Assembly (NCBI GenBank): GCA_951812955.1
Contig: OX638340.1
Span: 1,664,001-1,728,000, forward strand
Reading direction: 5' to 3'
Source of the DNA: an uncultured Gemmatimonadota bacterium
GTDB lineage: Bacteria > JAAXHH01
DNA length: 64,000 nucleotides
Positions 1,588 to 53,336 of the stretch are shown here, one piece after another. Position numbers and translations under genes: made by a program. Each line of letters opens with the position of its first letter. Positions within the stretch are counted from its first letter, which is position 1. The notes under the pieces are model-generated. The model was not told the origin of the DNA. It saw only the letters and a program-made list of their open reading frames with translations, and ran no database searches.

Positions 1588-2526
1588 TCAAGCCGCCGGC
1601 TTGCCCCGTTCCGCCGTGATCTTCCTCCCCGGCCTGAAGTACGTCTGCAGGACTTCCAGGAAACTCCGGGCCGCTCGTGACAGGTACCGCCCTTTTAGGT
1701 AGATCGCGCCCATCTTCTGCCGCGGACGGTTTCGAAAGTCGCTGATGGACACCTGCGCGAGCGTGCCGTTTTCCAGCTCTTCCTGGATGGCGACGGAGGG
1801 AACGATGGACAGGCCCGCCTCGATGCGCACGAAGTGCTTGATTACTTCGATCGAACTCAGTTCCATCGCCACGTCGAGCCGCACCCTGGATTGCTCGCAC
1901 AAATCGTCGATCAGCTTCCGGGAGGCGCAGTGCTGGTCGAGCAGGATCAGCGGATATTGCTCCATATCCTTGAGATGCACGGTCCGCCGGTCCGCCAGCG
2001 GATGACCTGGCGGCGTGATCAGCACGTCATGGCGGGAGAACAGCGGGATCGCCTCGATCTCCCGGGGCAGATAGGCCAGCGTGACCACGCCGAGGTCCAC
2101 CTCGCCGTCGACCACTGTCTGGATGGTCCGCAATGACGTGGCATTCTTTACGACGATGTCGATTCCGGGATAGCGGTCCTGGAAGGACTTGAGTATGGCC
2201 GGCAGGCGGTAGCATCCGGTGGTGTCCGACGTGCAGAGCACGAGACGGCCGGCCTCGAGGCGATCCAGGTCTTCCAGTTCCTGAACGGCCTCTTTCATCA
2301 GTCCTTCCATCTCACTCATGTATTTAAGCAGTACCTTCCCTGCCTCGGTGAGCGCGAGATGGCGGGTCGTCCGATGGAACAGTGGCTGGCCGATTTCGCC
2401 TTCGAGCTTGGCCACCTGGATGCTCACGGCCGACTGGGACCGGAAGAGGGCTTTTGCCGCCAGGGAAAAACTGCCGTGACGGGCTACGGCATGAAATGCG
2501 ACGGCTTGATCGTAGGACAGGTTCAT
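1588..2526 (-). CDS. LysR family transcriptional regulator
   Basis: N-terminal wHTH typical of LysR (YDQAVAFHAVARHGSFSLAAKALFRSQSAVSIQVAKLE). About 310 aa with a C-terminal substrate-binding domain. Divergent from the IMPDH-family gene. Confidence 0.85.
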   Translation of the reverse strand: MNLSYDQAVAFHAVARHGSFSLAAKALFRSQSAVSIQVAKLEGEIGQPLFHRTTRHLALTEAGKVLLKYMSEMEGLMKEAVQELEDLDRLEAGRLVLCTSDTTGCYRLPAILKSFQDRYPGIDIVVKNATSLRTIQTVVDGEVDLGVVTLAYLPREIEAIPLFSRHDVLITPPGHPLADRRTVHLKDMEQYPLILLDQHCASRKLIDDLCEQSRVRLDVAMELSSIEVIKHFVRIEAGLSIVPSVAIQEELENGTLAQVSISDFRNRPRQKMGAIYLKGRYLSRAARSFLEVLQTYFRPGRKITAERGKPAA

Positions 2527-2627
2527 TTATATATTATCTCAATAATGCATATTGATTTTATTAATTTGACTAATATATAAATCTGCATATTATGTCAAGA
2601 CGAAATCGGCGGAACGATGTATATTGA

Positions 2628-2688
2628 CTGACTCGATTGGTTGACTCGAAAGTTGACTCGAAAGTGGACTCGAAAGTGGACTCGAAGA
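2628..2688. repeat. 12-bp direct tandem repeat (TTGACTCGAAAG / TGGACTCGAAAG), about 4.5 copies, in the LysR / IMPDH-family divergent intergenic region
   Basis: Seen directly at 2641-2652, 2653-2664, 2665-2676, 2677-2688, plus a degenerate copy at 2628-2640. The flanks are AT-rich. Confidence 0.8.
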
Positions 2689-2784
2689 AGGACCCGTAAT
2701 CCGGATCAGCACAACCCTGGATAACCGTACCGGGAATCCAATAGGGGTAATGGAACCTCAAACGGTTTCCCACGGAGGACATAC

Positions 2785-4272
2785 ATGGCGCACATAGCCT
2801 CTACCGTTTCTCACAGTCTTAAGGAATACCGCCTTTTGCCGCGCCTTACTCAGGCCGATGCAAATGCCCAGCTCGTGTCGCTGGAGACGCGCCTTTGCCG
2901 GCACGGAGACGGCTACGTCACGCTGCGCACACCCTTTCTCAGCGCGGCCATGCAGGCGGTTACCAGCGTGGAACTGGCCATCGCAATGGCCCAGTTGGGT
3001 GGCATGGGCGTGTTCGCCGTGAGCCAGACTGTTGAAGAGCAGTGCACCAGGATCGACGCGGTGAAACGGTTCAAGGCCGGGTTCCAGACGGATATCGTGA
3101 CGCTGTCGCCGCAGCAGTCCATTGGTGAGGTGATCGGGATCATGAACGATACCGGTTATCACACCTTCCCCGTGACGGATACCGGCGTATTCCACGGCAA
3201 GCTGGTCGGCGTGATCACGGACAAGGACTTCGACGAACGGTACGACCAGGACATGCGCGTGGGCGACCGCATGAAGACGGACGTGCAGACCGGTGCCGCG
3301 GAAGACGACCTGAAGACCGCCAACACGCGAATGATCGAATACGGCCGCGGGTTCCTGCCCATGGTTTCCTCCGAAGGGACGCTGGTATCGGTCGTGTTCA
3401 AGCGGGACCTCGACAAGCACATCCGCCATCCCCACTCCACGGAAGACGCGCAAAAGCGCCTAGTGGTCGGCGCCGCCGTATCGACCCATCCGGAGGACCG
3501 CGAACGGGTGGAGGCGCTGATCGAACACCAGGCAGACGTGATCGTCATCGACGCCTCCGACGGCCACACGGAATACCAGGGCGAGACGCTGAAATGGATC
3601 AAGTCCCATTATGACATCCCCGTAATCGCGGGGAACGTGGTGACGCGGGACGGCTTCGACTACCTGGCCGGCAGCGGGGCGGACGCCGTGAAGATCGGCA
3701 TGGGCATCGCGTCCGGCTGCACGACGCAGATGGTGAAGGCCACCGGTCGCGGACAGGCTACCGCCATCCAGGAAGTCGCCGCGGCCCGGGACGAATGGGC
3801 GCGGACCACGGGCGACTACCTTCCACTCGTGGGCGATGGGAGCATACAGGGACCGGCGGATATGCTCATCGCCCTGTCCCTGGGCGCCGACACACTCATG
3901 ATGGGCAACCTCCTGGCGCGGTTTACCGAGAGCCATGGCGAACTCGTCCGAAACGCAGCCGGGGACCTGGTCAAGGAATACTGGATGGAGGGCAGCCGGA
4001 AGGCCTTCAACAACCGGCGCTACGCCCAGCTCGCAAGTACCTTCTTCGAGGAAGGCATAGTCGGCCAGGTGCCCCACTCGGGGTCGGTCTACGACAAGCT
4101 GCCCATCGTCGTCCAGATGCTTAAATCCGGCATGGCCTCGGCGGGCTGTGCCGACATTGAGGCACTGCACCGGGACGCCATCCTGGAACTGCAGTCCAAC
4201 GTGTCCCTTGAAGACAGCGGCGTGCACGACATGTCCGCCGTCCAGTCCATCCAGGAATTCGGGATTACCTAG
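2785..4272 (+). CDS. IMP dehydrogenase/GMP reductase family protein with a CBS pair
   Basis: TIM-barrel IMPDH-like motifs: the catalytic Cys loop KIGMGIASGCTTQ and GDGSIQGPADMLIALSLGAD. CBS-like region near the N-terminus. 495 aa. Confidence 0.75.
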   Translation: MAHIASTVSHSLKEYRLLPRLTQADANAQLVSLETRLCRHGDGYVTLRTPFLSAAMQAVTSVELAIAMAQLGGMGVFAVSQTVEEQCTRIDAVKRFKAGFQTDIVTLSPQQSIGEVIGIMNDTGYHTFPVTDTGVFHGKLVGVITDKDFDERYDQDMRVGDRMKTDVQTGAAEDDLKTANTRMIEYGRGFLPMVSSEGTLVSVVFKRDLDKHIRHPHSTEDAQKRLVVGAAVSTHPEDRERVEALIEHQADVIVIDASDGHTEYQGETLKWIKSHYDIPVIAGNVVTRDGFDYLAGSGADAVKIGMGIASGCTTQMVKATGRGQATAIQEVAAARDEWARTTGDYLPLVGDGSIQGPADMLIALSLGADTLMMGNLLARFTESHGELVRNAAGDLVKEYWMEGSRKAFNNRRYAQLASTFFEEGIVGQVPHSGSVYDKLPIVVQMLKSGMASAGCADIEALHRDAILELQSNVSLEDSGVHDMSAVQSIQEFGIT

Positions 4273-4283
4273 TTCGGGGGGAC

Positions 4284-4955
4284 ATGAAGACTGTCTTTTT
4301 CGATCTGTTCGAAACCCTGATTACCGAAAAAACAAGAAGCGCATACCGGACAAGAACCCCGATATACGTGAAACTGCGAACCACGCAGGATCGGCTTTCA
4401 AGGTATTGGGTGGACTTCGGTGATCGCGTTATGACCGGCGGGTTTCCGGATTTCACCGCCATGTTCTCACACATCCGGGAAGAAGTCGGATCACCGGTGA
4501 CTGACCGGGAAATTTCCGAGTTGGCTCAGGATTACGAGCGCAGGAAACAAATCGTATTGTCTACGGTTGATCCCCAGGTCTTCGAGATGTTGAACGAGGT
4601 AAGGACCCTGGGACTAAGCATCGGTGTCATCAGCAACGCCATGCCGGAGGAAGCGCTGGCGTGGAAATCCTGTCCGCTACAGGATCACGTGGACGACGTG
4701 GTATTCTCCTGCAAAGTCGGGTTGATGAAACCGGACAGCAAGATCTATGAGTTCGCCTGTACACGTATGGATATACGGCCGTCCGATGCGTACTTTGTCG
4801 GAGATGGCGGCTTTGACGAACTGCGCGGGGCGGCCTCTGTCGGCATGAAGGCTATACAGGCGGCCTGGTACCTGCAGCAGGAAGTGGCATGGCCCTGGGA
4901 CCATCCCCTGCCCCAGGCGGAATCGATGGAAGACCTGCCGGCCATGTTGAGATAG
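4284..4955 (+). CDS. HAD-superfamily hydrolase
   Basis: Motif I-like FFDLFETL and motif IV VGDGGFDE. ATG is 11 nt after the upstream stop, with a GGGGGGA ribosome-binding site. Confidence 0.65.
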   Translation: MKTVFFDLFETLITEKTRSAYRTRTPIYVKLRTTQDRLSRYWVDFGDRVMTGGFPDFTAMFSHIREEVGSPVTDREISELAQDYERRKQIVLSTVDPQVFEMLNEVRTLGLSIGVISNAMPEEALAWKSCPLQDHVDDVVFSCKVGLMKPDSKIYEFACTRMDIRPSDAYFVGDGGFDELRGAASVGMKAIQAAWYLQQEVAWPWDHPLPQAESMEDLPAMLR

Positions 4956-10953: not shown

Positions 10954-11730
10954 ATGCTCTTATTCGATTTCGACGGGGTACTGCTGAACTCCGTCGTAGA
11001 GATGTCTATTACGGCTTACAACACGGTCACCGGCGGTCTCGCTACTTCTCCAGACGACCTGCCCGGCAACGCGGCGGAGCTGTTTGTGACCAACCGGTAC
11101 CACGTCCAACCGGCCGGTGACGCGATCAACCTGATGACCTGGTGTATAGACAATGCCGGCCTGCCCGGCGACCACCGGCTGGAACCGGAGGAATACCTGG
11201 CGATCCGCGAGGCGTCGGACGTCCCCCTGAAGGAACGTACGGGCAGTTTCTTCGCAGGCCGAAAGCGGTTAGTCACTCAAGATCCGGTCCAGTGGGCGTC
11301 GCTCAACACGGTGTACCAGCCGGTCTGGGATGTATTGAAAGGACAGGGCGCCGAAGGGATCGTGATCCTTACCAACAAAAACCGGGAAGCCACCGTGACC
11401 CTGTGTCACCACTTCGGCCTTGCCGTCCGGGACGGAAACGTGTACTCGGGCGATCACGGAACGACCAAGATCGAGAATCTGCTCGCGATCCGGGCGCGTT
11501 TCGAACGGGAACGCTACGGATTCATCGACGACTCCATCGGCAACCTGGAGGAGCTCGATGCCCATTTCAACAGGGATGAACCCCTTCTCGAACTGATGCT
11601 GGCTTCCTGGGGTTACATAGGACCGGACGACCACGCGGCGGCCCGCCGCGCCGGTTATGCCATCTACGAACAGGCCGACCTCATCGCGCGAGTCACCTCG
11701 ATGAAGGGCGTCGAACTGGGCAGCTCATAA
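10954..11730 (+). CDS. HAD-like hydrolase
   Basis: N-terminal LLFDFDGVL DxD motif. A GTG at 10921 overlapping the upstream stop is an alternative start. Confidence 0.6.
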   Translation: MLLFDFDGVLLNSVVEMSITAYNTVTGGLATSPDDLPGNAAELFVTNRYHVQPAGDAINLMTWCIDNAGLPGDHRLEPEEYLAIREASDVPLKERTGSFFAGRKRLVTQDPVQWASLNTVYQPVWDVLKGQGAEGIVILTNKNREATVTLCHHFGLAVRDGNVYSGDHGTTKIENLLAIRARFERERYGFIDDSIGNLEELDAHFNRDEPLLELMLASWGYIGPDDHAAARRAGYAIYEQADLIARVTSMKGVELGSS

Positions 11731-11789
11731 ATCGGAAACCAGGCAGCTCATGAATCGGAAACCAGGCAGCTCATGAATCGGAAACCAGA
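11721..11789. repeat. 23-bp direct repeat x3 (CAGCTCAT[A/G]AATCGGAAACCAGG) spanning the HAD stop and the kinase start
   Basis: Seen directly. Copy 1 carries the TAA stop of the upstream gene. Copy 2 carries an ATG that is out of frame with the kinase. Copy 3 carries the kinase ATG at 11773. Confidence 0.8.
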
Positions 11790-12831
11790 CAGCCACTCCG
11801 GCAGCGAGCTTGAGGTCATCGAACGTTTCCCGGAACTGCGCGCCCTCGTCGTCGGGGACATCATGCTCGACGTTTACGAGTTCTGCCGAACCGGGGACAG
11901 CAAGCCCATCGATTCGGAGAAGGCGGGAAAGCGGGCCTACAAGGCGCAGGAAACGATCAAGGTGCTCGGCGGCGCGGGCAACGTGGCGGCCAACCTGGCT
12001 TCCCTGGACGTGCAGACCACCCTCGTGGGCGTGACGGGCAACGACGAACATTACTTTAAGATCCGCGATCTCGCGGACGATCTGGAAATACGCCACGGCC
12101 TGATCCGGGACGAGCGCCGCCCCACCACGATCAAGGCCCGCCTGTACCTGGACGACGACTACCTGCTGCGGCGCGATACCGAGTGCGCCGACCGGATCGA
12201 CGGCGGCACCTCGGCCGCGCTGGCGAAGGAAGTCCTTCGCGCACTGCCGGAGACCGACGTCGTGATCCTCAGCGATTATGACAAAGGGGTCTTTACCGCG
12301 GCGAACACCGGTCAGATCATCCGCGAATGCCGCCTCAATGAAATCCCCGTCGTGGTTGATTTCAAGCCGGGCAACCGGGCGTTCTTCGCCGGCGCGGACA
12401 TCATCGCCCCGAACGCCGCCGAGGCCGCCGAGCTTATCGGCGGGTTTTCCATGGACCGGCTGGGTTCCGACTGCCGGCGGCTGCATGCTTCGCTGGGTTG
12501 CCGGAACACAGTCGTCACGCTGGGAGAGCAGGGACTCTGCGGCGTGGGGCCGGACGGCTTCTTCCATGTACGGGGCCATCGCGTCAAACCCGTGGACAAG
12601 GTCGGTTGCGGCGACACCGTGCGGGCGGGGCTGGCCATCGGCGCGGCGCTGGGGCTTCCCCTCGAGGAGTCGGGGGAACTCGCAAACGACGCGGCGACGG
12701 TCATCGTGCAGAAACCGGCTACCTCGGTCCTTTCCCGGGGAGAACTCAGGAATTTCGTATCGGGAAAACAAGAAGTCAGTCCACCACCCGCGGCGGCGCT
12801 GGTCGGACGCGGGGGAGCGTCCGACGGGTAA
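11773..12831 (+). CDS. PfkB/ribokinase-family carbohydrate kinase (heptose-7-phosphate kinase-like)
   Basis: GG motif KVLGGAGNVA and the C-terminal anion-hole motif GCGDTVRAG. Confidence 0.75.
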   Translation: MNRKPDSHSGSELEVIERFPELRALVVGDIMLDVYEFCRTGDSKPIDSEKAGKRAYKAQETIKVLGGAGNVAANLASLDVQTTLVGVTGNDEHYFKIRDLADDLEIRHGLIRDERRPTTIKARLYLDDDYLLRRDTECADRIDGGTSAALAKEVLRALPETDVVILSDYDKGVFTAANTGQIIRECRLNEIPVVVDFKPGNRAFFAGADIIAPNAAEAAELIGGFSMDRLGSDCRRLHASLGCRNTVVTLGEQGLCGVGPDGFFHVRGHRVKPVDKVGCGDTVRAGLAIGAALGLPLEESGELANDAATVIVQKPATSVLSRGELRNFVSGKQEVSPPPAAALVGRGGASDG

Positions 12832-20369: not shown

Positions 20370-20424
20370 AACGGTGAACTTTCATTCTAACGGTGGACTT
20401 TCATTCTAACGGTGGACTTCACTT
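20370..20424. repeat. 19-bp tandem repeat x3 (AACGGTGGACTTTCATTCT) between two Spy/CpxP-like genes
   Basis: Seen directly at 20370-20388, 20389-20407 and 20408-20424 (last copy degenerate). Confidence 0.75.
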
Positions 20425-24195: not shown

Positions 24196-25839
24196 ATGCA
24201 ATACGGTTTCATCATCGACAACAGGAAATGTATCGGGTGCCACGCCTGCACCGTCGCGTGCAAGGCCGAGCACGAGGTGCCCCTCGGCGTCAACCGGACC
24301 TGGGTGAAATACATCGAGAAGGGGACCTATCCGAACACGACCAGGCATTTCTCGGTCATGCGGTGCAATCACTGCGAGGACGCCCCCTGCGTGGAGATCT
24401 GCCCGGTGACGGCGCTGTATACGCGGAAAGACGGCATCGTGGATTTCGATCCACGCAGATGCATCGGATGCAAGGGCTGCATGCAGGCCTGCCCGTACGA
24501 CGCGCTCTACATCGACCCGGACACCCATACGGCGGCAAAGTGCAACTACTGCGCCCATCGGGTGGATATCGGCCTCGAACCCGCCTGCGTGAACGTCTGC
24601 CCTGAACACGCCATCATATCCGGCGACATGGACGATGATTCCACGGAGATCGCCCAGTTGCTCGCGAAGGAACAGGTGACGGTCCGCAAGGTGGAAAAGG
24701 ACACGAAACCCCGCCTGTACTATATCGACGGCGACGAAGCCTCGTTGACGCCCGGGGAAACCGCGACGTCCGACAATTACATGTGGAGCTCACAATCGGA
24801 CGGCGTGGGCCACTTCGCAAGATACATCGAGGAAAGGACCGCCCGCGCGAATCCGGAGGACATGGTCAGACAGCTTGGTGGGGAGAACCAGGGCGGACAG
24901 GTTGGCGGCGGGCAAGATGGCGCCGGCGTACGCGGCGAACAAGATAGCGACAAAGATGAGAGATCCGGCAAAGGCGCCGCGGCGCGCAGGGTCTACGACG
25001 CGCCGGACAAGGGCGTGCTGTGGGGAAACGACGTAGCCGCATACGTTTGGACCAAGGCCATCTCGGCGGGTGCTTTCCTCCTTCCCTTCGCGGCCTCGGT
25101 CCTGGGCATGACGATAGATCCTTTTCTTTCCTGGTTCGGAAGTACCATCGCCCTGACCTTTCTCCTGGCCACGACGATCCTCCTGGTGAGCGATCTGACC
25201 CAGCCCAGACGATTTCTCTATGTACTGCTCCGTCCTCAGTGGAAATCCTGGCTCGTGCTCGGAGGCTACGCGTTGACCCTCTACGGGCTGGCGCTCACGC
25301 TGTGGGCCGTGGCAATGTGGACCGGCCGAACCGGGGCTGCCGAAATCATCGGCTGGATCGCGGCCGTACTGGCGGTCCTTACGGCTGTATATACGGCCTT
25401 TCTATTCGCCCAGGCCAAAGGACGGGATTTCTGGCAAAGCCCCACGCTCGTCCTGCACATGCTGCTCCACGCGGTGCTCGCCGGCGCGGGGGTTTTCGCT
25501 ATCGCGCTTCTGTTCAGTGCGTCGGGCGAAGCGTGGACCGCCTTCGTCCGGAATACGCTGATCGTCGCCATCATCCTGAACCTGCTCGTAATCGCATCTG
25601 AAATGCTGACCCCCCATCCGACCGCCGACGCGCGGAAAGCCGTGCAGGCCATCGTCCGCGGCCGGTACCGGGGGTATTTCTGGATCCTGGGCATCGCCCT
25701 GGGCAACATAGCGCCCGTCGTACTGGCCTGGGCCGGTGGCGAAACGATGCTCGCCGCGGCCGGCGTGGGCGTGCTGATCGGCCTGTACGCGACCGAGTAC
25801 GTCTGGGTCAGGGCGCCGCAGGACATACCGCTGAGTTGA
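24196..25839 (+). CDS. fusion protein: 4Fe-4S dicluster ferredoxin domain (DmsB/PsrB-like) plus NrfD/PsrC-like 8-TM membrane anchor
   Basis: N-terminal domain has four Cys clusters (CIGCHACTVAC, CNHCEDAPCVEICP, CIGCKGCMQACP, CNYCAHRVDIGLEPACVNVCP). Gly-rich linker. Eight predicted TM helices in the C-terminal ~280 aa. Confidence 0.75.
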   Translation: MQYGFIIDNRKCIGCHACTVACKAEHEVPLGVNRTWVKYIEKGTYPNTTRHFSVMRCNHCEDAPCVEICPVTALYTRKDGIVDFDPRRCIGCKGCMQACPYDALYIDPDTHTAAKCNYCAHRVDIGLEPACVNVCPEHAIISGDMDDDSTEIAQLLAKEQVTVRKVEKDTKPRLYYIDGDEASLTPGETATSDNYMWSSQSDGVGHFARYIEERTARANPEDMVRQLGGENQGGQVGGGQDGAGVRGEQDSDKDERSGKGAAARRVYDAPDKGVLWGNDVAAYVWTKAISAGAFLLPFAASVLGMTIDPFLSWFGSTIALTFLLATTILLVSDLTQPRRFLYVLLRPQWKSWLVLGGYALTLYGLALTLWAVAMWTGRTGAAEIIGWIAAVLAVLTAVYTAFLFAQAKGRDFWQSPTLVLHMLLHAVLAGAGVFAIALLFSASGEAWTAFVRNTLIVAIILNLLVIASEMLTPHPTADARKAVQAIVRGRYRGYFWILGIALGNIAPVVLAWAGGETMLAAAGVGVLIGLYATEYVWVRAPQDIPLS

Positions 25840-26009
25840 GTAGGACTTACCGCTGAGTTAAGAAGGACATAGCACCGAGCTGACATAAACGCTGCCTGGC
25901 CCGTTCCGGGAATCGGCACGGCCGGAAACTGCCCCGGGTTCGACGACATTCCACTGCCGCGGGCTCGACGACACAATGAAGGAAGACACAGCAGACAGGA
26001 ATCACCAAC

Positions 26010-32619: not shown

Positions 32620-33885
32620 ATGTCCCTGAAAGTCACCAACGTGGAAAGATTCACCGTCACCGTGCCCTTCACGCAGGGTCAACGGCCCATGGCCGAGCGA
32701 ACGGTATACAACTGGTCCGTCTTCGAACTGTGCAAGGTCTCAACCGACGCCGGGCTCGTGGGCTGGGGCGAGACCATCGTCCATTACATCCATGCGCGGG
32801 TGACCGACCGGAGCGTGGAACGCGTCATGGGAAAGAGCCCTGCGGACTTCATGCAGGACGATACGATTGGCGCCGGGCTGCAGATGGCCCTGTACGACGT
32901 GGTGGGCAAAGCGCTCGAGGTGCCCTGCCACAAGCTCCTGGGCAACAAGGTGCGTGACTGGGTGCCCATTTCCTGGTGGTCCAACGAAGGGCCTCCAGAC
33001 GACTGGGTCCGACAGGCGCGGGACGCTGTAGACAACGGGTACACCACCATCAAGCTCAAACAGCGGCCCTGGCATGACATCAACGAACAGATGGAGGCGA
33101 TCGACGCATCCGTGCCGCGCCACTTCCGGGTGGATCTCGACGCCAACGGTTCCATGCACAACGCGGCGGCGGCCATGCCCGTCATGCGCGGCCTGGAGCG
33201 ATTCGACATCGTGGCCATGTTCGAGACGCCCATACCGCAGACCGACATCCTGGGGAACCGCCAGCTCCGGCAGGTCATCAACCGTCCCATCGCCATGCAT
33301 TTCGGCTCGCCGCCCTACACCACGGTGGTCCGCGAAGCGGTATGTGACGGTTTCGTCGTCGGTGGAGGCGCCTCGCGGGTGATGTACCAGGGGATTCTCA
33401 GCGCGGAAGCCAACATGCCCTTCTGGCTCCAGATGGTCGGCAACGGACTTACCACCACGTGGGCCGCCCATCTCGGCGCCGTGCTCACCCACGCCACCTG
33501 GCCCGCCATCACCTGTATCAACCTGTACCGCCACCACCTGCTCAAAAGTCCCATCGAAGTCGTGGGCGGCTTCCACCGCGTGCCCGACGGACCGGGTCTG
33601 GGCGTGGAAGTGGACGAAGAGGCCATGCACGGCTTCCTCGTTCCAAACGACGTGATGCGGCCATTCCACGACCGGGACGAGCCGTACGACTTCCCGAGGC
33701 CCCGGTTTATCCGCACGGCGGTGTTTCCGGATGGGCGCCGCGTCCATTTTGGGAATATCCGCCACGGGTGGGAACTGGAGGCCTACACGCCCGGCGTACG
33801 CACGGAATACTGGCGGGAAGACGGCACCGAAGGTTTCGAAGACCTCTGGAGCCGTACGCAGGAACGGCCCGTATCCGAGGGATGA
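32620..33885 (+). CDS. enolase-superfamily enzyme (mandelate racemase/muconate lactonizing family)
   Basis: KLKQ and VDLDANGS barrel motifs. Start ATG 32620 with a GAGGAGCGGAGGA ribosome-binding site. The stop lies inside the first unit of the 21-bp repeat array. Confidence 0.75.
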   Translation: MSLKVTNVERFTVTVPFTQGQRPMAERTVYNWSVFELCKVSTDAGLVGWGETIVHYIHARVTDRSVERVMGKSPADFMQDDTIGAGLQMALYDVVGKALEVPCHKLLGNKVRDWVPISWWSNEGPPDDWVRQARDAVDNGYTTIKLKQRPWHDINEQMEAIDASVPRHFRVDLDANGSMHNAAAAMPVMRGLERFDIVAMFETPIPQTDILGNRQLRQVINRPIAMHFGSPPYTTVVREAVCDGFVVGGGASRVMYQGILSAEANMPFWLQMVGNGLTTTWAAHLGAVLTHATWPAITCINLYRHHLLKSPIEVVGGFHRVPDGPGLGVEVDEEAMHGFLVPNDVMRPFHDRDEPYDFPRPRFIRTAVFPDGRRVHFGNIRHGWELEAYTPGVRTEYWREDGTEGFEDLWSRTQERPVSEG

Positions 33886-34052
33886 ACGACCGGGGTGGTC
33901 GGACGAACGACCGGGGTGGTCGGACGAACGACCGGGGTGGTCGGACGAACGACCGGGGTGGTCGGACGAACGACCGGGGTGGTCGGACGAACGACCGGGG
34001 AGGTCGGACCAAACGACCGGGGAGGCCGGACCGAGCGACCGGGGAGGCCGGA
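33884..34052. repeat. 21-bp tandem array x8 (GAACGACCGGGGTGGTCGGAC), each unit an internal palindrome CGACC-N5-GGTCG
   Basis: Seen directly: five perfect copies at 33884-33988 and three degenerate copies to 34052. No unique spacers. Intergenic, between the enolase-family gene and the SDR gene. Confidence 0.9.
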
Positions 34053-34172
34053 CCAGACCGCATGGTGAGAACGGTGCCACGTTGACACGTAACCAGGGAT
34101 CGGTAAACTGCCGGCAAGACGGGCATTTCTTAAAAATTCGTATAAGGAAGACCAGGTAACCGGAGCAGAACC

Positions 34173-36518: not shown

Positions 36519-37610
36519 ATGCCGTTTTTCAACAAGGGAATGGAGTGCCAAGTGTCCAATAAGAAGAAATGCCTGATGATCGGCGCCGGCGGCATGGCCG
36601 GCGGTTGGATTCGCAGTTTCTACCCGCGGTTCAAGGACCGGCACGAGATCGTCGCACTGGTGGATATCAACGCGGATATTCTCCACGACGCGGGGGATTT
36701 CCTGGGGCTTCCCCGGAGTCACAGGTACACGGACATGGAGAGCGCTTTCGGGGAGGTGGACGCGGACTACTGCACAATCGTCATTCCCCCGGCCGTTCAC
36801 CGGGACGCCGTGATGCTGGCGGTGGAGCATAAGCTGGACATCCTGAGTGAAAAACCGATTGCCGACACGTGGTCCGCATGCGTAGATATATACAGGGCGG
36901 TAATGGATGCCGGCCTGAAGATGCACGTGATTCAAAACTACCGCTATTCCAGCCGCATGCTGACGATGCGGCAGGTATTGCGAGACGGAGCGCTTGGACG
37001 GATCAACTACATCCAGGGCCGATTTGCCGCGGACTACCGGGAATACGGCGCCTGGGGCGCCTTCCGCTACGAAATACCGCACACCCTGCTCGTGGAAGGC
37101 GCCGTGCATCACTTTGACATGATGCGGAATCTTTCGGGGGGAGACTGCAAGACGATCGCCGGTTGGGAGTGGAACCGGCCGTGGAGCACCTTCCAGGGGG
37201 ATTGCTGCGCCATGTACGTGATGGATATGACCAACGGGGTGAAGGCGGCCTACGAGGGGTCGTGCCTGGGCGCCGCCGAACAGAACAGCTGGCACGGGGA
37301 GTACTACCGGGCGGAATGCGAAGAGGGTGCCGTCGCCATTGGAAGCGACGGGGTCACGCGCATGTATAGACATACGCCCGGAAAGGGTATGTGCGTCGAA
37401 GACGTCAGCCCCGTCGTTCCCGAATACGACGGACACCAATGGCAGATCAACGAGTTTCTCGACTGGATCGACGGGGGACCCGCACCCGATACATGCCTGG
37501 AGCACAACATCCGGAGCGTGGCCATGGTCTTCGCCGCCATCGAAGCTTCGAAGACAGGAGAGTCGATCGACGTGGAGGAAATGGTCGGGCAGGTCGTAAA
37601 CACCGCTTGA
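36519..37610 (+). CDS. Gfo/Idh/MocA family oxidoreductase
   Basis: N-terminal Rossmann GAGGMAGG and a dehydrogenase C-terminal domain. Alternative start at ATG 36540. Confidence 0.75.
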   Translation: MPFFNKGMECQVSNKKKCLMIGAGGMAGGWIRSFYPRFKDRHEIVALVDINADILHDAGDFLGLPRSHRYTDMESAFGEVDADYCTIVIPPAVHRDAVMLAVEHKLDILSEKPIADTWSACVDIYRAVMDAGLKMHVIQNYRYSSRMLTMRQVLRDGALGRINYIQGRFAADYREYGAWGAFRYEIPHTLLVEGAVHHFDMMRNLSGGDCKTIAGWEWNRPWSTFQGDCCAMYVMDMTNGVKAAYEGSCLGAAEQNSWHGEYYRAECEEGAVAIGSDGVTRMYRHTPGKGMCVEDVSPVVPEYDGHQWQINEFLDWIDGGPAPDTCLEHNIRSVAMVFAAIEASKTGESIDVEEMVGQVVNTA

Positions 37611-37722
37611 AGGAGAGAACGGGAACTGCCTGAAGGAGAAAACGGGAACTGCCGTTGACGGGGAGAAAGTGATTGGACCGGTGACGGGCGCCGCCTGAGA
37701 GAGGTACGGGTACCAAATTCAT

Positions 37723-53103: not shown

Positions 53104-53184
53104 GCCGGTCTCCAAAATCTACGGGTTTATCGTGCAACAAGAGTCAGAACGAATGGCCAGGCATGGCACAGATTACTCGCGCCC

Positions 53185-53336
53185 CACCGAGACGCCGAGC
53201 AATCCGCGATCATCGCGCCCCACACCGAATTGCCGAGCAGTCCGCGATCATCGCGCGTCACACCGAAACGCCGAGCAGTCCGCGGCCACCGCGCGTCACA
53301 CCGAGACGCCGAGCAGTCCGCGAGTAATTTGGAAAT
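53185..53336. repeat. 38-bp tandem repeat x4. The 3'-most copy on the minus strand encodes the C-terminus of the UxaA-like gene; the other three lie just past its stop.
   Basis: Seen directly: units at 53185-53222, 53223-53260, 53261-53298 and 53299-53336 (CACCGAGACGCCGAGCAGTCCGCG…). The stop of the 53296..56037 gene is the last triplet of copy 3. Confidence 0.8.

Follow-up and report, generated by a model that had tools for sequence, protein, structure and literature searches.

The 12-nt tandem array between a lysR gene and a divergently transcribed IMPDH-family gene in the window (the whole stretch of 64,000 nt analysed here) is probably, at a moderate level of confidence, a slippage-generated, weakly constrained minisatellite (VNTR) in the 5' leader of the IMPDH-family gene, where it would act at most as a quantitative modulator. 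On the best explanation of the sequence, the array would be neither an operator nor part of a promoter.

The genes on either side of the spacer were assigned by their Pfam domains and are the divergent LysR and IMPDH/CBS genes named in an earlier note on this DNA:

1588-2526, minus strand: LysR-family regulator gene (PF00126 and PF03466)
2785-4272, plus strand: IMPDH/CBS-family gene (PF00478 and PF00571)

The IMPDH-family protein scored below all NCBIfam equivalog cut-offs (PRK07107, 417.6 bits against 585). A gene for a HAD-family hydrolase with weak matches to nucleotidase-type models (4284-4955) follows 11 nt after the IMPDH-family gene and, because of this short gap, is probably co-transcribed with it. 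The GC content was about 0.37-0.44 across the lysR/IMPDH spacer, against about 0.60 in the surroundings. The AT-rich portion of this spacer lies mainly at 2527-2625, upstream of the array.

The array was defined by reading of the sequence, TRF, shuffles and the series of alleles, and its units are as follows:

2628-2700, plus strand: 12-nt tandem array of six head-to-tail units
2628-2640, plus strand: array unit 1, CTGACTCGATTGG
2641-2652, plus strand: array unit 2, TTGACTCGAAAG
2653-2664, plus strand: array unit 3, TTGACTCGAAAG, missing in strain L161 in the alignment
2665-2676, plus strand: array unit 4, TGGACTCGAAAG
2677-2688, plus strand: array unit 5, TGGACTCGAAGA
2689-2700, plus strand: array unit 6 (degenerate), AGGACCCGTAAT

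GACTCGA starts at 2630, 2643, 2655, 2667 and 2679 and is followed by GACCCGT at 2691, giving core spacings of 13, 12, 12, 12 and 12 nt. TRF reported a period of 12 at 2643-2686 (3.7 copies, 96% matches, score 81). The self-similarity of the array segment at offset 12 was 0.52, a value equalled at any offset by none of 300 segment shuffles. The regularity of the array is far beyond chance. Spacings, TRF and shuffles agree with the earlier count of about 4.5 head-to-tail 12-bp copies at 2628-2688; the end coordinate needs correction, one further degenerate unit carrying the array to 2700. The 3' end of the array is 84 nt from the ATG of the IMPDH-family gene.

The exact GACTCGAAAG core was searched for in the whole 64-kb window and found in three copies, all inside the array. 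The motif was seen neither in the rest of the window nor in 167 of the 169 loci compared (described below), and two adjacent units occurred among these loci in L161 and L167 only. Viral contigs searched for the motif gave no match, and a mobile-element or phage origin was rejected on that result.

Promoters and a LysR-type dyad were located upstream of the array:

2539-2555, no strand assigned: LysR-type dyad, TCAAT-N7-ATTGA
2566-2593, plus strand: predicted sigma-70-type IMPDH promoter (TTGACT at 2566-2571, 16-nt spacer, TATTAT at 2588-2593)
2570-2598, minus strand: predicted divergent lysR promoter (-35 TTGACA, complement of 2593-2598)

The hexamers of the IMPDH promoter match the consensus at 10 of 12 positions; sites with at least 10 of 12 sigma-70 matches number four in the window on both strands, three of them intergenic. 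TTGACT, TATTAT and the 16-nt spacing were invariant in 26 loci with the lysR arrangement, and the spacer sequence varied. Because this invariant -35/-10 pair implies a transcription start near 2600, the array would occupy roughly +29 to +101 of the predicted IMPDH-family mRNA, whose leader would be about 185 nt long. It therefore starts some 29 nt downstream of the predicted transcription start and would be outside the core promoter; the earlier note had placed it in the promoter region.

For the lysR promoter the -10 element is uncertain, the candidates being TATTAG (complement of 2570-2575, 17-nt spacer) and TATATT (complement of 2572-2577, 15-nt spacer); GTCAAG and AATATAT of this promoter block were invariant in relatives. 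The lysR and IMPDH-family genes thus appear to use overlapping divergent promoters. In the region 2539-2598 these promoters are face to face, the -35 of each overlapping the -10 region of the other, with an inverted repeat TTGACTAATA...TATTATGTCAA. The dyad and the two promoters form a compact divergent control region (2539-2598) that was invariant in 26 relatives.

The dyad has its centre some 53 bp before the predicted start of IMPDH transcription, and its arms co-vary, relatives having TTAAT-N7-ATTAA or similar in the same place. From knowledge of LTTR boxes, TCAAT-N7-ATTGA at 2539-2555 is a candidate that we take to be the likely LysR recognition site. The distinction drawn earlier between the array and LysR T-N11-A dyads is upheld: the array consists of direct repeats, and the dyad with its co-varying arms is separate from it. 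As an LTTR operator the array was rejected, since it is made of direct repeats downstream of the predicted start and is not an interrupted dyad near -65/-35. Its units were likewise rejected as LysR half-sites: they have only TTGA in common with a dyad arm, and the leader motif does not change along with the arms in relatives. Extra promoters arising from the TTGACT units were discarded, no -10-like hexamer being present 16-18 nt downstream of any unit. The segment between the array and the ATG held no promoter-like sites.

It is quite unlikely that a factor other than LysR binds the direct repeats cooperatively, in the manner of MetJ or the omega repressor. Such a factor would either form a roadblock to transcription on the downstream side of the IMPDH promoter or act on the lysR promoter from an upstream element. 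Short dyads are present in the direct repeats (ACT-CGAA-AGT and AGT-NN-ACT), relatives have a TGRAC-like core at periodic intervals, and the site is beside two divergent promoters, with the lysR -35 30-100 bp away. Yet repeats with a period of 12 bp do not keep in phase with the turns of the DNA helix, and the array is not over the promoter. The absence of the motif elsewhere also counts against an operator, as weak evidence drawn from 64 kb of the genome and the other loci. Known tandem operators (MetJ metboxes, omega-repressor heptads, MraZ boxes) are, like the array, short head-to-tail repeats near a promoter. The cores of such operators are conserved, their arrays overlap the promoter, and the same sites are used again at other targets. 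The 12-nt array is poorly conserved, begins past the predicted start and has no second copy in the sequence searched.

The comparison set was assembled from three sources. A scan of species-representative genomes with the IMPDH-family protein gave 80 loci, a metagenome scan contributed loci L081-L160, and strain-level contigs L161-L169 were obtained by exact-protein look-ups with the LysR protein and members of its 90% cluster. In L001-L018 and L021 the IMPDH-family protein was 92-99% identical to that of the window and the divergent lysR arrangement was common to all; these loci come from uncultured MAGs, largely sponge-associated and labelled Gemmatimonadota or Latescibacterota. The distance from the -35 hexamer to the ATG was 167-292 nt in close relatives. 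In the species-level group around the window the nucleotide identity of lysR was 95.6-98.8%, with a dS of 0.04-0.18.

Strains of this group differ in copy number by whole units. The 258-nt spacer of L161 differs from that of the window by one SNP and exactly one missing TTGACTCGAAAG unit; the units at 2641-2652 and 2653-2664 have the same sequence, so that the extra copy may be assigned to either. TRF accordingly counted 3.7 copies in the window and 2.7 in L161. Alleles of four units were present in L001, L081, L002, L163, L165, L166, L168 and L169, and L162 has four more diverged units followed by a 23-nt deletion. Five units were found in L161 and L167, and the six units of the window are the longest allele in the species-level group. 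By lysR, L161 is at dS 0.043 and L167 at dS 0.175 from the window, and L165, at dS 0.08, has four units; this distribution of the 5-unit allele suggests recombination across the locus or parallel expansions. The single unit change between the window and L161 over dS 0.043 suggests a modest rate of change. We infer slippage as the mechanism by which the array arose.

The length variation expected of the phase-variable tract suggested in the earlier note is present between strains (4-, 5- and 6-unit alleles, L161 being one unit shorter than the window). Classical ON/OFF phase variation is unlikely at this placement, because neither promoter spacing nor reading frame changes: the array is at least 35 nt downstream of the -10, so that unit changes cannot alter the -35/-10 spacing, and the tract is non-coding with a unit that is a multiple of 3, so that they cannot shift a frame.

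Divergence of the array was compared with that of its flanks and with the synonymous rate of lysR. Compared with L001, the array of the window had 11 mismatches over 51 aligned positions, where the lysR synonymous rate (dS 0.08) would give 4.1 (P = 0.003), and the 3' leader had 2 differences in 84 positions, against 6.7 expected. Between the window and L161 the flanks had no differences in 183 nt, against about 8 expected. For alleles of equal length the divergence of the array was 0.35-1.3 times dS, with a mean slightly below the neutral rate. In L003, L017 and L021 the array was absent from the leader. The array is the least constrained part of an otherwise constrained spacer, and its evolution is near-neutral or faster. 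It therefore combines a non-coding head-to-tail structure, whole-unit differences between strains, conserved flanks and little purifying selection, as in intergenic VNTRs. The same evolution near or above the neutral rate, the relatives without an array (L003, L017 and L021) and the non-recurrence of the motif speak against an operator in general and against the iterated binding sites for another regulator that the earlier note had proposed. A 12/24-nt periodicity with a T(G/T)GAC-like core was kept in many relatives, the units being otherwise diverged; shared ancestry may explain this core, and selection on it could also do so.

Within the leader, the array occupies a variable part between the 5' strand of one helix (helix A) and a hairpin next to the start codon (hairpin B):

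2604-2612, plus strand: 5' strand of helix A, AAUCGGCGG
2725-2775, plus strand: leader hairpin B, CCGU/GGGAA/CC/GGGGU, loop AAUGGA, ACCUC/GG/UUCCC/ACGG
2774-2779 and 2785-2787, plus strand: Shine-Dalgarno sequence GGAGGA and ATG, in invariant alignment columns

In 10 of 25 relatives AAUCGGYGG pairs at 9 of 9 positions with a homologous YYGYCGRUU segment. Pairing is reduced to 7 of 9 in the window, L161 and L167; in the window the best ungapped 9-mer partner of AAUCGGCGG is CGAUUGGUU (2635-2643, 7 of 9 pairs), and what is left of the partner is a weakened CUCGAUU (2632-2638) inside the first array unit. Read on the plus strand, the differences among the ten fully paired helices preserve pairing (G-C/G-U or A-U/G-U); read on the minus strand, they would leave A-C mismatches. 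Transcription of the plus strand is supported because these differences are wobble-compatible on that strand only. Such wobble-type changes in the helix adjacent to the array point to constraint at the level of RNA rather than DNA, a further argument against an operator. In the expanded alleles the old 3' helix strand was lost, CGCCGAU being replaced by CGACGAU, CGACGAA and then CGAAGAA.

These comparisons are consistent with the following origin of the array as a minisatellite. It would derive from an older degenerate segment of 12/24-nt periodicity, downstream of the 5' helix strand of the leader, which in relatives would provide the 3' strand and the apical part of helix A. In the lineage of the window, slipped-strand mispairing would have duplicated units singly (from 4 to 5 to 6) and homogenised them, and the expansion would have overwritten the old 3' helix strand in the steps from CGCCGAU to CGAAGAA.

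RNAalifold gave a weak consensus on the MAFFT alignment of the leaders, so the structure of hairpin B was set by hand before it was tested. Single-sequence folds of relatives contain this hairpin as well. In the hand-specified structure 84.5-85.3% of cells were paired, against 36-63% with the partners slid, and its covariation score was reached by 1 of 500 shuffles. Matches to a covariance model of the hairpin were confined to the region upstream of this gene in the close clade. Rfam 15 gave no match at gathering scores in the whole window, and between 2500 and 2850 the sole match at E < 10 was a chance snoRNA (E = 9.2); a known RNA family was rejected at both thresholds. The 3' end of hairpin B overlaps the first two G of the Shine-Dalgarno sequence. 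Conserved beside that sequence, the hairpin is a candidate translational control element. The ACCUC strand of hairpin B could alternatively pair with GGAGG.

The array itself folded no better than dinucleotide shuffles (z = +0.85), nor did the whole leader (z = +0.60), and with z-scores of at least 0 (plus strand) and -0.35 (minus strand) a structured repeat RNA was rejected. For alleles of 0-12 units modelled in silico, the accessibility of the Shine-Dalgarno sequence was 0.41-0.59 with no trend, and control of its exposure by copy number was set aside. On these models, copy number would have little or only a quantitative effect on expression, through leader length or folding.

A better-characterised repeat in a comparable position is the (ATCTTTC)n tract in the 5'-UTR of H. 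influenzae hmw1A, an RNase III-processed hairpin of great length in which the repeats make up one arm and a G-rich partner the other; at least 11 repeats occur in nature and expression falls with length (PMC12721329). The array resembles hmw1A in lying between promoter and start codon, in being predicted to be transcribed and in having a copy number that varies with the strain. It differs from hmw1A in having 4-6 units, in folding no better than shuffles and in lacking a long hairpin arm.

It is rather unlikely that the array is a selected contingency or rheostat locus of the hmw kind, at which frequent and reversible gain and loss of units would tune expression of the IMPDH-family gene. Such a locus would be consistent with strain differences of whole units between flanks that stay identical, with three perfect units as a good substrate for slippage, and with the occurrence of the 5-unit allele in two lineages (dS 0.043 and 0.175) that lysR does not place as nearest neighbours; hmw is itself the precedent for a transcribed 5'-UTR repeat that sets the expression level (PMC12721329). 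Nevertheless, the window and L161 differ by a single unit at dS 0.043, which points to a modest rate of change, the array makes no long hairpin of the hmw kind (in which 10 repeats are one arm), and the modelled accessibility of the Shine-Dalgarno sequence was independent of copy number. The IMPDH-family protein is, moreover, a housekeeping-type nucleotide enzyme, and genes of this type are not typical contingency genes. With the simple-sequence contingency loci of Neisseria, Haemophilus and Campylobacter, which are in promoter spacers or coding sequence, the array has in common a slippage-mutable repeat next to the regulated gene; unlike theirs, it is neither between -35 and -10 nor in frame, and its unit is 12 nt long, against 1-7 nt.

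The position of the array in a predicted leader also bears on RNA-binding proteins. The leader is rich in GGA, and through its U(G/U)GAC units sites might be gained or lost for a CsrA/Rsm-like or other multimeric RNA-binding protein, which would control translation jointly with the GGA of a hairpin loop and the Shine-Dalgarno GGAGGA; we consider this unlikely. In a set of 20 related leaders no trinucleotide was more over-represented than GGA, with 166 occurrences where 119 were expected; the z-score of 6.5 is inflated by the relatedness of the sequences. The leader of the window has 10 GGA, 12-22 nt apart except for two that overlap in the Shine-Dalgarno sequence, and the hairpin B loop AAUGGA has an invariant GG about 20 nt upstream of GGAGGA. 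As in CsrA/Rsm leaders, several GGA are present, of which one is in the loop of a hairpin and another overlaps the Shine-Dalgarno sequence, and a GGA in a hairpin loop together with a GGA in the Shine-Dalgarno sequence is the usual geometry of CsrA sites. GGA was also found on the sense strand of the downstream gene in 6 of 7 intergenic arrays of the window, a count made post hoc. Within the array, however, three of the six units are (U/C)UGAC without GGA, and the unit sequences are not conserved. A tblastn search for csrA in the loci and in 64 kb of a genome of about 3.8 Mb gave nothing convincing and is uninformative.

A coding repeat or leader peptide was rejected, as the frames through the array are not conserved and the leader-length differences of relatives are not multiples of 3. 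On the minus strand a 70-aa ORF (2570-2782), which contains FESTFEST, runs through the array and reads FESTFESTFESTFEST there. Its frame is not conserved, because of the same length differences, and it is most likely spurious. A small ORF, ATG-TAT-ATT-GAC-TGA at 2617, was missing in L004, L006 and L013. A Rho loading site, with one UC per 12 nt, came into consideration through the spacing preference of Rho and was put aside: rut sites are C-rich, and in the unit G outnumbers C (3 G, 2 C).

At least six further intergenic minisatellites were found in the window:

11719-11793: intergenic array, 23 nt x 3.3
20370-20419: intergenic array, 19 nt x 2.6
25820-25871: intergenic array, 22 nt x 2.4
33880-34053: intergenic array, 21 nt x 8.2
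37608-37653: intergenic array, 23 nt x 2.0
53178-53323: intergenic array, 38 nt x 3.8

Several of these six start at, or a few bases from, the stop codon of the upstream gene. Exact-protein look-ups with five other window proteins returned no records of a second strain for these arrays. Unrelated tandem duplications were found in the same leader in other lineages: 24 nt in L082, 15 nt in L005, 6 nt in L009 and about 48 nt in L007 and L010. The last of these is CTGGAGCAGCACAACCCTGGATAAC...GATCGCGRACC, with repeated GCAGCAC motifs, and through it the leader of L010 reaches about 259 nt. Because of the other arrays in the window and the independent leader duplications in other lineages, slippage-prone spacers appear to be a general trait of these genomes.

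In a sister clade whose IMPDH-family protein is 79% identical, the two divergent 5' UTRs both hold repeats of a single 8-mer, each time in sense orientation. In L086 (about 1046-1111 and about 1297-1332), 8.2 copies of GTGATTTG run up to the lysR start codon; in this clade 4.5 copies of the reverse complement, AATCACCA, stand shortly before the IMPDH Shine-Dalgarno sequence. Mirrored 8-mer arrays were also present at the equivalent positions of L085, L088 and L020, and L087 (about 1454-1482) has GTTTCGTA x 3.6 in place of the 8-mer of the clade. The mirrored arrays are not easily explained by neutral or simple slippage and hint that at this locus repeats in a leader can have a function. In L085 and L088 the leader contains two hairpins some 80-130 nt before the IMPDH ATG, of which the second, GAGCCCuucgGGGUU, is followed by the U-rich GAUUUUGUUUUU and looks like an intrinsic terminator or attenuator. 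It is very unlikely that leader repeats throughout this sponge-associated group, with their short sense-strand motifs (GGA-containing units in the window, AAUCACCA in the two UTRs of the 79% clade), are selected, tunable multi-site platforms for a global RNA-binding regulator or for ribosome loading.

Among known repeats, the intergenic VNTRs or minisatellites used in MLVA (e.g. mycobacterial MIRU-VNTR) resemble the array in being non-coding, with conserved flanks and whole-unit differences between strains, and also in unit drift, partial homogenisation and the presence of several arrays per genome. The array departs from a typical VNTR in its short 12-nt unit and few copies and in its position inside a long, conserved, structured leader, from a helix of which it appears to be derived. 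The TAACTGA direct repeats of Beggiatoaceae were found at 169 loci, within a few nt of start codons, and were proposed to be post-transcriptional sites in 5' regions (PMC4679880). The array has in common with them that it consists of short direct repeats in a 5' region; in contrast, its unit is locus-specific and 84 nt separate its end from the ATG. Closer to TAACTGA than the array of the window are the AATCACCA arrays that the 79% clade has just upstream of start codons.

If the array is only a VNTR, its length can serve to tell strains of an uncultured sponge symbiont apart, and the case cautions that regular repeats next to a regulator gene may be something other than operators. Its context is somewhat more useful, first for the long IMPDH leader with a conserved hairpin outside the known RNA families, and second for the compact, overlapping divergent promoters with their LysR dyad. 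If leader repeats were selected platforms, gain and loss of units would re-tune individual genes, including the IMPDH-family gene; the repeats that arise repeatedly in these leaders would deserve attention if genome-wide analysis shows their orientation and conservation.
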